Source of the DNA: an uncultured candidatus Porisulfidus sp.
GTDB lineage: Bacteria > Pseudomonadota > Gammaproteobacteria > Poriferisulfidales > Oxydemutatoraceae
Assembly (NCBI GenBank): GCA_965215125.1
Contig: OZ244052.1
Location: 928,001 to 992,000 of the forward strand
Direction of reading: 5' to 3'
Length of the DNA: 64,000 nt
This document shows positions 48,001 to 63,848 of the stretch, piece after piece; within the stretch, counting starts at the first letter, position 1; the number at the start of each line of letters is the position of its first letter. The notes under the pieces are model-generated. The model did no database searches and was not told the DNA's origin. It saw nothing but the letters and a program-made list of their open reading frames with translations. The translations under genes were made by a program, and so were the position numbers.

Positions 48001-48190
48001 GTAGGTGACCACCCCGTCAGGCTGCGCCTGCCACCCCTCCATAGGAGGGGAATGTACCGTCCCTACAGTTCGTGGGTACTTTTTCAACAGCCCCAAGTTC
48101 TGCATAATGTTACGCCGACTGACCTATCAGGCGGACATGCCAGTCCGCCCCTACTGGCTCAATCGGCGGTTCTATTGCGCCGCCCTCTGA
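48001..48190. repeat. Mosaic repeat in the dsrA upstream region
   Basis: Reverse CCCCTCC module, MITE end, REP GGCGGACATGCCAGTCCGCCCCTAC nested in the GCCGA..TCGGC hairpin. Confidence 0.85.
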
Positions 48191-60830: not shown

Positions 60831-61537
60831 CTCGCACGATTAACGCGTCCATCCATTGGTTTATGGGAGTTAAAACCGGGTGGCGCATGGCAGTCTCTGC
60901 AACTCATCCATTTTTTGGGTACCGTTCGTCGGAAATGCGAAACAGCACCACATCGCCCATTTTATGATCCAACCATGATTAGACGGCTTGCTATGATGCG
61001 GGCTCTTTCTTATAATTCAACTTAAGAGGTTAAAAATGGAAAATATAGAGAATGTAGACAACTTAACGATTGAAACTATTTACAAAATGGTGCTTGAAAT
61101 GAAGTCAAAGCTGGACTTTCTAGAATCGGAAACGCATACCCCACAATCGGACAAGGCAGGTTTATACATGGAAAGTATAGAACCGAGATTAAGTAAGGTT
61201 GAAGCCGACATTGCAGAAATGAAAACCGATATAGCAGTTATGAAAGCTGAGATGGAAGATATAAAACTAAGACTAAGCAAAGTTGAAGCCGATATCGTAG
61301 ACATAAAAGCTGAAATGGTAGTTATGAAAACCGATATAGCGGTTATGAAAGCCGATATAGAAAGCATGAAACTGAGACTAAGCAAGGTTGAAACCGGCAT
61401 TGCAGACATCAAAGCAGAACAATTTAAATTCAGAGATGACATCTATAAATGGGGTTTAGCGTTAGCCGCCAGCATTATTGTTTCGGTAAGTTCTATTGTT
61501 AGTTTGGTGGTGATTTTTGCAAACTAACTCCCAATCC
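60831..61537 (+). repeat. Duplicated cassette copy 1 (upstream region plus coiled-coil gene)
   Basis: Near-identical to 63121-63848, which is 21 bp longer. Confidence 0.92.
61036..61527 (+). CDS. Heptad-repeat coiled-coil protein with C-terminal TM anchor
   Basis: LSKVEAD/IAVMKAE/MEDIKLR heptads, KWGLALAASIIV TM; GAGG RBS. Confidence 0.8.
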   Translation: MENIENVDNLTIETIYKMVLEMKSKLDFLESETHTPQSDKAGLYMESIEPRLSKVEADIAEMKTDIAVMKAEMEDIKLRLSKVEADIVDIKAEMVVMKTDIAVMKADIESMKLRLSKVETGIADIKAEQFKFRDDIYKWGLALAASIIVSVSSIVSLVVIFAN

Positions 61538-61658
61538 TCCCAGATATAAATGTAAATTATGAATGTAGGGGCGGACTGGCATGATGCCTTATTAAAAATC
61601 AAGCCGTTTTATTCATTTTTTATCTCCTTTTGTGAGTATCGATTTAGGACGCAAATGC

Positions 61659-62633
61659 TCAACAATAATTCGTGTCAAACGGTTGCTTGTGCGTGGTGAC
61701 CCCATAAATAATACGCGTGAGCTTATGAGCGCAAGCAACAATAATCTGCTTTTTAGTTAACTCCGGACGCCGCCGACTTAATTGGTCGGCAAATGCACGG
61801 ATGGTTAGGTTATGCCGACGTGCCGAGAGTGCTGCCATAAATAGGAGGGTGCGCAGGTCGGCATTGCCCTGTTTAGAGATGGGCGTGGGCGATGCGCAGT
61901 TGCCGGATTGCTTGTGCTTGGGCGTGATGCCGATATAGGCGGCGAGTTGCTTTGGATGGCGAAACGTATTATCATCCAGTACTGCACACAGGGCAGCCGC
62001 AGTTTGAGTTCCGATTCCAGGAATGGAACACAGCAACTGGTGAAGCTGTGTGAGGTGCTCGTCTTGAGCGATGATTTTGTCCATTGAGGCATTAATCTTA
62101 TCGATCTGCTTCTCATGGTTCTTCAGGCTAGTGGCTGCCACCTTTTTTTGCTTCGCATCGCGCAGGGTATTAGCGCAATTGCTTAACATCGTACAACACT
62201 TGACTAATTCCCTGCGCCATTTCAGTGCGTCGCGCAAAGCTTGCACAGCCGGTGAGGGCTTTTGCCAATTGTTTTCAGGCGGGATAGCAAATACGAAGCG
62301 TGCGATGATACGCGCATCCACGCGATCGGTTTTACTGCGTATGCCGAGCGAGTCGCGGAATCTAGCGATCAGCACCGGTGCTGCCACGATGATTGGATGC
62401 CCGGCATCATAGCCGGCCATGCACAGGTCTAGTTCAAGACCGCCGGTCGCCTCAACACAGATGCGACACTGCTGTGCGCGGTGTTTGCTCGTCCAAGCTA
62501 ACAACTGTTTGATGCCTTGGGCATCACTACTAAATTGTTGCTCGGCAAAACTATTATCAGTGAATAATAGAGCCGCCTCTAAAGTGTCTTTAGAGACATC
62601 AACGCCAATCGTGACGGGTTGTTTGTTTTCCAT
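61659..62633 (-). CDS. IS110-family DEDD recombinase, apparently intact
   Basis: IGVDVSK, VEATG, KTDRVDA, SIPGIG, catalytic KQSG, ISKQGN..LR. Confidence 0.93.
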   Translation of the reverse strand: MENKQPVTIGVDVSKDTLEAALLFTDNSFAEQQFSSDAQGIKQLLAWTSKHRAQQCRICVEATGGLELDLCMAGYDAGHPIIVAAPVLIARFRDSLGIRSKTDRVDARIIARFVFAIPPENNWQKPSPAVQALRDALKWRRELVKCCTMLSNCANTLRDAKQKKVAATSLKNHEKQIDKINASMDKIIAQDEHLTQLHQLLCSIPGIGTQTAAALCAVLDDNTFRHPKQLAAYIGITPKHKQSGNCASPTPISKQGNADLRTLLFMAALSARRHNLTIRAFADQLSRRRPELTKKQIIVACAHKLTRIIYGVTTHKQPFDTNYC

Positions 62634-62694
62634 AATAAATTACTCCATAAGGGTTGGTTAATGAATGAAATACTAGGTATCAAACACAGTTTAG

Positions 62695-62870
62695 GAAAGT
62701 ATGACTACGCCGCCCAAACAGATGAATACGAGATCTAAAGTCCCAAGCTGCCTTTCGAGCTCTATAGTCATAACGCCGGAGGAGTGCTTTTCATACCATC
62801 AGGCTTTAATGCCTCGTCCGTCCTGCAGCGTGTCTCCTCCGACTTCCTAGGCACTGCATCTGCCTAAGCG
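62695..62870 (-). ncRNA. Bridge RNA of the IS110 element
   Basis: 5' hairpin TAGGCA/TGCCTA, then two stem-closed internal loops (GTCGGAGGAG/CTCCTCCGGC and ATGACTA/TAGTCAT) with segments matching the target and donor junctions. Confidence 0.75.
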
Positions 62871-62907
62871 TTTATCTTATATCAAATAAGCCAGGGTTTA
62901 ATATATC

Positions 62908-63108
62908 TGTCTGCCCTTAAGTGCCGTTCTGCACAGCCGTAATCGCTCGCGCCGTATGGTTTTGGTTTCCATAAATTAACTGGTGTACGATTTTATTTGT
63001 GCAAACGCAGCACGTTACAGTTCTGCATAACGTTACGCCGATTGATCGGGCGGACATGTTAGTCCGCCCCTACAAGCGCAATCGGCGGTTCTATTTTTCA
63101 ACAGCCCC
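62908..63108. repeat. MITE/REP mosaic (reverse orientation), continuing the REP half at 61565-61583
   Basis: TCTGCCCTTAAGTGCCGTTCTGCAC..., nested REP in the GCCGATTG hairpin, ends TTTTTCAACAGCCCC. Confidence 0.85.
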
Positions 63109-63120
63109 AACCTTAACCCA

Positions 63121-63848
63121 CTCGCACGATTAACGCGTCCATCCATTGGTTTATGGGAGTTAAAACCGGGTGGCGCATGGCAGTCTCTGCAACTCATCCA
63201 TTATTTTGATACCGTTCGTCGGAAATGCGAAACAGCACCACATCGCCCATTTTATGATCCAACCATGATTAGACGGCTTGCTATGACGCAAGCTCTTTCT
63301 TATAATTCAACTTAAGAGGTTAAAAATGGAAAATATCGAGAACGCAGACAACTTAACGATTGAAACTATTTATAAAATGGTGCTTGAAATGAAGTCAAAG
63401 CTGGACTTTCTAGAATCGGAAACGCATGCCCCACAATCTGACAAGGCAGGTTTATACATGGAAAGTATAGATCTAAGACTAAGCAATGTTGATGCTGACA
63501 TCGTAGATGTGAAAACCGATATAGCAGTTATGAAATCTGAGATGGAAGATATAAAACTAAGACTAAGCAAAGTTGAAGCCGATATCGTAGACATGAAAGC
63601 TGAAATGGTAGTTATGAAAACCGAGATAGCGGTTATAAAAGCCGATATAGAAAGCATGAAACTGAAACTAAGCAAGGTTGAAACCGACATCGCAGAAATG
63701 AGAAAGGACATTGCAGACATCAAAGCAGAACAATTTAAATTCAGAGATGACATCTATAAATGGGGTTTAGCATTAGCCGCCAGCATTATTGTTTCGGTAA
63801 GTTCTATTGTTGGTTTGGTGGTGATTTTTGCAAACTAACTCCCAATCC
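63121..63848 (+). repeat. Duplicated cassette copy 2
   Basis: Near-identical to 60831-61537. Confidence 0.92.
63326..63838 (+). CDS. Paralogous heptad-repeat coiled-coil TM protein (one extra heptad)
   Basis: 170 aa versus 163 aa; extra IAEMRKD. Confidence 0.8.
   Translation: MENIENADNLTIETIYKMVLEMKSKLDFLESETHAPQSDKAGLYMESIDLRLSNVDADIVDVKTDIAVMKSEMEDIKLRLSKVEADIVDMKAEMVVMKTEIAVIKADIESMKLKLSKVETDIAEMRKDIADIKAEQFKFRDDIYKWGLALAASIIVSVSSIVGLVVIFAN

Follow-up and report, generated by a model that had tools for sequence, protein, structure and literature searches.

A REP-associated IS110-group insertion sequence with a CA core and a predicted IS621-type bridge RNA in an uncultured gammaproteobacterium

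How does a mobile element come to lie at one exact point of a repetitive extragenic palindromic (REP) hairpin, and does it carry its own guide to that point? The question is raised by an element near the end of a 64,000-nucleotide stretch of DNA (the window; positions 928,001 to 992,000 of contig OZ244052.1, assembly GCA_965215125.1) from an uncultured Candidatus Porisulfidus species of the Gammaproteobacteria, for which an original prediction had proposed an intact IS110 recombinase and a bridge RNA programmed against the genome's own REP. The element is very probably an autonomous insertion sequence (IS) of the IS110 group and of IS621 type, whose bridge RNA is aimed at the host REP. The mechanism as such is already known (described in 2024), standard annotation already names the protein an RNA-guided transposase, and REP targeting by bridge-RNA IS110 elements has been published for IS621 (available sections of PMC11208160 and PMC11208158) and ISPpu10 (available text of preprint 10.64898/2026.03.19.712850). 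The interest lies in the CA core, in the retargeting of guides between REP families within one genus, and in the exchange of RNA cassettes between diverged recombinases.

Comparison of genome copies and empty sites places the element on the minus strand of the window, with a length of 1,326 bp, i.e., a body of 1,324 bp (61584-62907) and one CA, the two core copies lying at 62909-62908 and 61583-61582. The original span, 61565-62920, does hold the element but also takes in both REP halves, the mobile part being 61584-62907 plus one CA. The plus strand reads GTAGGGGCGGACTGGCA at 61565-61581, TG at 61582-61583 and TCTGCCC from 62910 onward, in agreement with the rejoined flanks described before. 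When the element and one CA are taken out, GGGCAGA-CA-TGCCAGTCCGCCCCTAC is restored, a REP of the family GGGCRGAC-N6-GTCYGCCC, which has 40 exact members in this 2.22-Mb genome (G000) and 59 when up to one mismatch per arm is allowed. The element has inserted where the left stem of the REP hairpin meets its loop, and only the CA is duplicated. The nearly identical empty REP that had been pointed out elsewhere in the window was also found; its loop is identical to that of the split REP and its left arm differs.

61582-62909, minus strand: IS110-group insertion sequence with a CA core at each end (copies and empty sites)
62910-62920, minus strand: left half of the split REP, TTAAGGGCAGA, followed by the core CA (sequence)
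61565-61581, minus strand: right half of the split REP, TGCCAGTCCGCCCCTAC (sequence)
48129-48154, plus strand: empty REP with the same ATGCCA loop as the split site, an unoccupied target (REP search)

The sole long frame of the element encodes a protein of 324 aa that matches Pfam PF01548 (E 1.4e-20) and PF02371 (E 1.3e-24), as well as NCBIfam NF033542, 'IS110 family RNA-guided transposase', with 216 bits against a cut-off of 140. Its residues 8-321 align with the recombinases of ISCro4 (PDB 9t56, E 1.2e-44) and IS621 (8wt6, E 2.1e-43), and D12, E61, D103, D106 and S242 fall on D11, E60, D102, D105 and S241 of IS621 (chain numbering offset by 2), the catalytic residues named in the available text of Hiraizumi et al. 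2024 (PMC11208158). The frame is open and the DEDD and serine positions are kept, so that the enzyme is as intact as had been claimed. In a large protein collection, 19 clusters are 46-90% identical to it, followed by a gap, the remaining matches being at most 40% identical.

61659-62633, minus strand: recombinase gene, 324 aa, RuvC-like DEDD domain and Tnp domain with the catalytic serine (Pfam, NCBIfam, PDB)

The non-coding ends are unequal, with 274 nt on the left and 75 nt on the right. In the fold of the 274-nt left end, a 5' hairpin is followed by two modules, each consisting of a stem, a large internal loop and a distal hairpin, and a consensus fold of nine distinct left ends agrees with the single-sequence fold. 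The same parts, a 5' hairpin plus two internal loops, had been predicted from the sequence alone. The 5' stem-loop is the sole helix with a two-sided compensatory change (AU to GC, in one of the nine sequences), and it also shows a C-G / U-G / U-A series. The first module consists of a left guide of 9-10 nt, a linker of 1, a hairpin of 12 nt, a linker of 2, a right guide of 7-8 nt and two bases at the handshake position, compared with 9, 1, 12, 2, 3+4 and 2 for the target loop of IS621 in the available sections of PMC11208160 and PMC11208158. With its 5' hairpin, target and donor loops and near-identical guide and spacer lengths, the predicted RNA thus has the target-loop/donor-loop layout of the IS621 bridge RNA, as first suggested.

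62701-62868, minus strand: predicted bridge RNA core of 168 nt, comprising the 5' stem-loop, target-binding loop and donor-binding loop (single and consensus folds)
62846-62868, minus strand: 5' stem-loop (single and consensus folds)
62775-62843, minus strand: target-binding loop module, with stem 62843-62834 / 62784-62775 and distal hairpin 62813-62802 (folds)
62701-62771, minus strand: donor-binding loop module, with stem 62771-62763 / 62707-62701 (folds)

Guide pairing was scored by the rule published for IS621 (as set out in the available text), by which the left guide matches the bottom strand on the left side of the core, and the right guide matches the top strand, starting at the core and running to the right. 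The four guide segments lie exactly where they had been placed (GGACGGACG at 62823-62815, TGGTATG at 62798-62792, AAGGCAGC at 62754-62747 and ATCTG at 62723-62719), and the resemblance then noted between loops and substrates takes the form of explicit pairing. The left target guide AGGACGGACG makes seven Watson-Crick and two wobble pairs with one mismatch over the 10 positions of its own site, AGGGCAGACA, and the right target guide UGGUAUG makes six Watson-Crick pairs and one G-U with CATGCCA over the 7 nt by the core. On the donor side, AAGGCAGC pairs with AAGGCATC at seven of eight positions and AUCUG with CAGAT at all five. Such matches are not rare singly: in 20000 mononucleotide shuffles of the left end they were reached 3036, 1073, 2586 and 16420 times, respectively. 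The complete set, with the observed scores and order, was found in 0 of 20000.

62815-62824, minus strand: left target guide AGGACGGACG, reading the bottom strand of AGGGC(A/G)GA-CA (pairing)
62792-62799, minus strand: right target guide AUGGUAUG, reading the top strand CA-TGCCA (pairing)
62790-62791, minus strand: AA after the right target guide, where IS621 has a handshake guide (position)
62746-62754, minus strand: left donor guide AAGGCAGC(U), reading AAGGCAT-C(A) of the right end (pairing)
62719-62724, minus strand: right donor guide CAUCUG, reading the top strand CA-GATA of the left end (pairing)
62717-62718, minus strand: UU after the right donor guide, at the handshake position (position)

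Stronger evidence comes from copies of the element in four genomes of one genus, of which 28 were parsed (eight in G000, seven of seven in G036, three of three in G034 and 10 of 17 in G035), a set without one truncated copy and left-end remnants. Proteins of the relatives in G036 (7 copies), G034 (3) and G035 (17) are 60-97% identical. G000 itself has a second intact copy (603044-604371), identical over 1,328 bp and at a different site, two copies of the same type (A-type) with an interrupted gene, three of a B-type that is ~80% identical, one mosaic, one truncated copy and several solo left-end remnants. The boundaries are the same throughout: CA stands at both ends in all 28 copies, the flanks rejoin in every case to an intact REP sharing CA alone, without terminal inverted repeats, and 26 of the 28 have hit a REP hairpin at one constant position, between left stem and loop. 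In the remaining two (L041 in G034 and L049 in G035), the right junction is a REP half, and on the left the junction falls within the left end of a further copy, the full copy following the first ~104 or ~52 nt of that end. Their junctions, GGAGGAGA-CA and GTAGATG-CA, are pseudo-targets within an RNA-coding left end, and the arrangement suggests that one element inserted into a copy already in place and that the duplicate was lost afterwards.

Guides and substrates vary together in these copies, as the original prediction required of a genuine bridge system among homologues. Over the 7 nt by the core, the right target guide matches its site perfectly in 20 of the 28 copies, with wobbles only in five and with one mismatch in three, and its five forms each lie in a loop complementary to their own sequence.

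Right target guide UUGCAUG: loop TGCAA
Right target guide UUUGCAUG: loop TGCAA
Right target guide UUAGCAUG (UAGCAUG): loop TGCTA
Right target guide UUAACAUG (UAACAUG): loop TGTTA
Right target guide UGGUAUG: loop TGCCA or TATCA

The right donor guide follows the left end of its own element, AUCUG going with ends that start GAT and ACCUG with ends that start GGT (guide U/C with donor A/G). The left target guide follows the REP family, with ACGGAC in elements of GGGCRGAC REPs, and GAGGGC or GAGGAU in those of GGGAGGGC REPs. The latter family has no copies in G000 and G036, and 156 in G034 and 131 in G035, the hosts of the matching IS type; these two genomes also hold 39 and 115 GGGCRGAC REPs, respectively, and none of the 13 copies examined in them has its right junction in a REP of that family. 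Among the copies, seven or eight of the first eight positions of the left donor guide are paired, the right donor guide forms an uninterrupted run of 5-6 pairs that takes in the core, and the left target guide carries one or two mismatches. Each right guide is followed by a base that is complementary to position 7 in the other substrate, not in its own (target-loop A with donor T7, donor-loop U with target A7), the handshake rule of Hiraizumi et al. 2024 (available text, PMC11208158); in the D-type the donor-loop base makes a wobble only, and in the E-type, a single copy, it is unpaired. The nine left ends are 95% identical per column, on proteins down to 60% identity, and their variable columns are enriched in the guides (14 of 33 guide columns versus 25 of 136 others; Fisher p 0.005).

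Read along the IS-forward strand, the core itself is CA (TG on the plus strand), as had been proposed, and not CT. Both right guides end in UG where they read it, in all nine left-end variants. The left target guide ends in G, A or U according to the variant, and the left donor guide ends in U; the left guides are therefore not consistent in reading the second core base. In IS621 and related orthologues, the second core T is almost invariant (Hiraizumi et al. 2024, available text of PMC11208158). A full-text literature search found no CA or TG core for a bridge recombinase or IS110 element, figures and supplements, which cover thousands of orthologues and may list one with a CA core, lying outside such a search.

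The ends of the element further suggest how the RNA could be made. The 14-bp donor AAGGCAT-CA-GATAT lies between 6-bp subterminal inverted repeats, which are perfect in 25 of the 28 copies and occur in two compensatory states, TTTAAT/ATTAAA and TTAAAT/ATTTAA. By sequence match, a sigma-70-like promoter, TTGATT-17-TATATT, is formed only at the joined ends of a circle. A promoter scan of the integrated element found no sigma-70-like site upstream of the RNA in the left flank, and a single site just before the start codon (62661-62632), which is no more than shuffles give.

62900-62905, minus strand: -10-like hexamer TATATT in the left end (sequence match)
61597-61602, minus strand: -35-like hexamer TTGATT in the right end (sequence match)
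62897-62902, minus strand: left subterminal inverted repeat ATTAAA (complementary to TTTAAT)
61591-61596, minus strand: right subterminal inverted repeat TTTAAT (complementary to ATTAAA)

In the mechanism that we propose, the element would excise as a circle with the predicted junction ...AATAAGGCAT-CA-GATATATTAAACC..., and the joining of right and left ends would create the promoter from which a bridge RNA of ~170 nt could be transcribed out of the 274-nt left end. The target-binding loop would pair with both strands of the REP hairpin around the CA, its left guide AGGACGGAC reading GGGCRGAC and its right guide UGGUAUG reading CA-TGCCA, while the donor-binding loop would pair with the element's own junction, AAGGCAT-CA-GATAT. 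The DEDD/serine recombinase, presumably dependent on this RNA and still active today, would then exchange strands at the CA and place the element at the left-stem/loop boundary of the REP without duplication beyond the shared CA.

Several observations weigh against the reading as an IS621-type, RNA-guided element. As for the RNA, the single-sequence fold is unexceptional (z = -1.7, with 11 of 200 shuffles folding equally well), and the scaffold varies so little that a compensatory change on both sides is found in only one of the 56 pairs of the consensus fold; the support for the structure is therefore its energy and its resemblance to IS621. A search of 399 other scored genomes of the class gave no relatives of the recombinase at E <= 1e-50 and hence no more distant relatives with flanks, so that the structural covariation test stays weak. 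An Rfam 15 scan of 61300-63300 with E up to 10 returned three chance-level matches, none of them a bridge RNA, for which Rfam may or may not hold a family. The guides of the window copy are imperfect: an A-C mismatch interrupts the left target guide, which also has a G opposite the second core base, the left donor guide fails to pair with donor position 7 and with the second core base, and pairing of the right donor guide extends over no more than 5 nt. The CT core that is highly conserved in IS621 relatives is absent. Within G000 alone, four of five A-type insertions lie in mismatch-free loops, a weakly significant excess (binomial P 0.02), and two of three B-type insertions do so (P 0.20); moreover, the copies are not independent events because the four genomes are kin. 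Finally, no circle junction or empty allele was found among the loose ends listed for four assembled-contig runs over 61300-63200; the contigs of these public runs end at the IS ends, and the loose ends listed are other REP copies or the flanks of other insertions, which is uninformative either way.

These points bear unequally on the alternatives. It is very improbable that the recombinase alone recognises the structure or sequence of the REP hairpin, with the complementarity of the left end being incidental or of use on the donor side only. Every target is indeed a hairpin cut at its stem/loop boundary, the target stem-loop is reported to add specificity in the available text of the ISPpu10 preprint (10.64898/2026.03.19.712850), and the guide matches taken singly are within the reach of chance; yet the ordered set of four is not, the guide bases shift with loop, REP family and donor in several lineages on an invariant scaffold, and two RNA-guided recombinases of solved structure are related to the protein over its full length. 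An element of the IS1111 group, with a seekRNA-type guide RNA downstream of the recombinase gene in the right end, can hardly be credited: although there are subterminal inverted repeats, and many IS1111 members likewise target repeats according to the literature available in part, the right end offers 75 nt as opposed to 274 nt on the left, all four guide segments are in the left end, and the repeats measure 6 bp here versus the 7-17 bp given for IS1111 in that literature.

Another possibility leaves the guided mechanism in place and concerns the window copy, an A-type, which could be weakened or inactive, with drifted guides, and spread in trans by the better-matched B-type or by host recombination. 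Each of the four guides of the A-type does depart from its B-type counterpart, at the core base in the left target guide, at three positions in the right one, at position 7 in the left donor guide and at a single base in the right one. In addition, two of the four A-type copies have a gene broken by a nested IS and nevertheless occupy different sites, and mosaic copies attest to recombination between types. However, two A-type copies are undamaged and identical to each other, their 324-aa frame being open and no catalytic residue missing; three of the four occupy a TGCCA loop, a better match to the A-type guide than to that of the B-type; and most left-end variants (eight of nine) share the G that the A-type has at position 7 of its left donor guide, where the B-type has U. 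A weakened window copy is accordingly unlikely, and the element is better regarded as an autonomous member of the IS621 type.

How close is it to the systems already characterised? The full-length protein alignment with IS621 of E. coli (Durrant et al. 2024, PMC11208160; Hiraizumi et al. 2024, PMC11208158; 8wt6), the conserved DEDD and serine residues, the long left and short right ends, the 14-bp donor between short subterminal repeats, the promoter rebuilt at the circle junction and the REP hairpin target are all shared, and the left donor guide pairs only through the first core base, as in the available description of IS621. In contrast, the core is CA here and CT in IS621, the left guides are inconsistent on the second core base, pairing of the right target guide extends over 7-8 nt as opposed to 4 nt in wild-type IS621, the REP family is unrelated, with insertion here at the left-stem/loop boundary, and the protein is distant, relatives outside the element's own group being at most 40% identical in the large protein search. 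ISCro4 / IS622 of Citrobacter rodentium (9t56; Perry et al. 2025, preprint 10.1101/2025.05.14.653916) provides the best PDB match and, in the available text of that source, recognises 14 nt in both target and donor and has handshake guides; it differs in its CT core, in belonging to another host clade, and in its status as an engineered tool and not a natural population. ISPpu10 of Pseudomonas putida, compared by description only, likewise combines REP targeting, a bridge RNA and a junction promoter; the available text of its preprint (10.64898/2026.03.19.712850) reports the mobilisation of cargo in trans and the target stem-loop as a specificity feature, with a CT core in place of the CA found here.

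Recent movement of the element within G000 is indicated by the two intact copies, identical over 1,328 bp at different sites, and by two further copies, L047 (G000:C1:763826-766299) and L044 (297990-300463), in which an identical 1.14-kb IS is nested in the recombinase gene at the position equivalent to 61941 of the window. This nested IS, of which the genome has seven copies, codes for a 350-aa rve DDE transposase. The two interrupted composites, of 2,474 bp, differ from each other at two positions and occupy different REP sites, and therefore a copy with a broken gene and cargo seems to have moved, presumably by recombinase and RNA supplied in trans. The types have also recombined with each other. 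In the mosaic copy of G000 (C1:1998246-1999580; L005/L050), the first ~400 nt are A-type (99-100%) and the rest is 100% B-type, and in G036 the copies L043 and L048 are identical over the first 200 nt and 66-87% identical beyond. Between types, the bridge-RNA region is 81-96% identical and the centre of the gene 46-67% (DNA). The bridge-RNA cassette thus appears, from these identities, to have been exchanged between diverged recombinases, and since a near-invariant cassette sits on diverged genes, one scaffold may serve diverged enzymes.

It is quite possible, if a little short of an even chance, that the genus harbours a natural clade of CA-core bridge recombinases, in which the left guides need not read the second core base, the scaffold is swapped among enzymes, and the guides have been rewritten to follow two REP families and their loop variants. 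Bridge recombinases are under development as programmable tools for DNA insertion, inversion and excision, and because the characterised IS621, IS622/ISCro4 and ISPpu10 use CT cores, the sites that can be addressed are limited. A natural, apparently active CA-core relative would widen the choice of core, and the present element is a candidate programmable recombinase. If such a clade does exist, it would provide a core specificity outside CT/GT and a natural record of guide reprogramming, the guide variants that track REP variants forming a compact natural data set on retargeting. For the host genome, the element accounts for part of a REP-associated mosaic, and broken or cargo-bearing copies would be among those moved.

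Some further observations concern the surroundings of the element and of its relatives. Solo left-end remnants lie in G000:C1 near 521885, 670310, 1402591, 1633291 and 1981289. At 521885, ~43 nt of left end are fused straight to a right REP half, while those at 670310 and 1633291 start with GGTATATT and adjoin ...AGAG-CA or ...GAGGG-CA, which is like the target of the GGGAGGGC-REP relatives. In G035, the regions C2:265436-272309 and 362579-380423 are long tandem arrays of REP units at a spacing of ~134-267 bp, with dozens of units each. Within the window, a second empty REP lies at 63046-63075, ~140 bp from the left end of the IS, with the loop ATGTTA (plus strand), and the ~50 bp upstream of the IS (62910-62960) are part of a larger repeat unit found at no fewer than 20 places in the genome. 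Finally, the IS is flanked on the plus strand by two paralogous open reading frames, 61036-61527 (163 aa) and 63326-63838 (170 aa), which have heptad-like repeats (…DIAVMKAEMEDIKLRLSKVEADI…) and a hydrophobic C-terminus.

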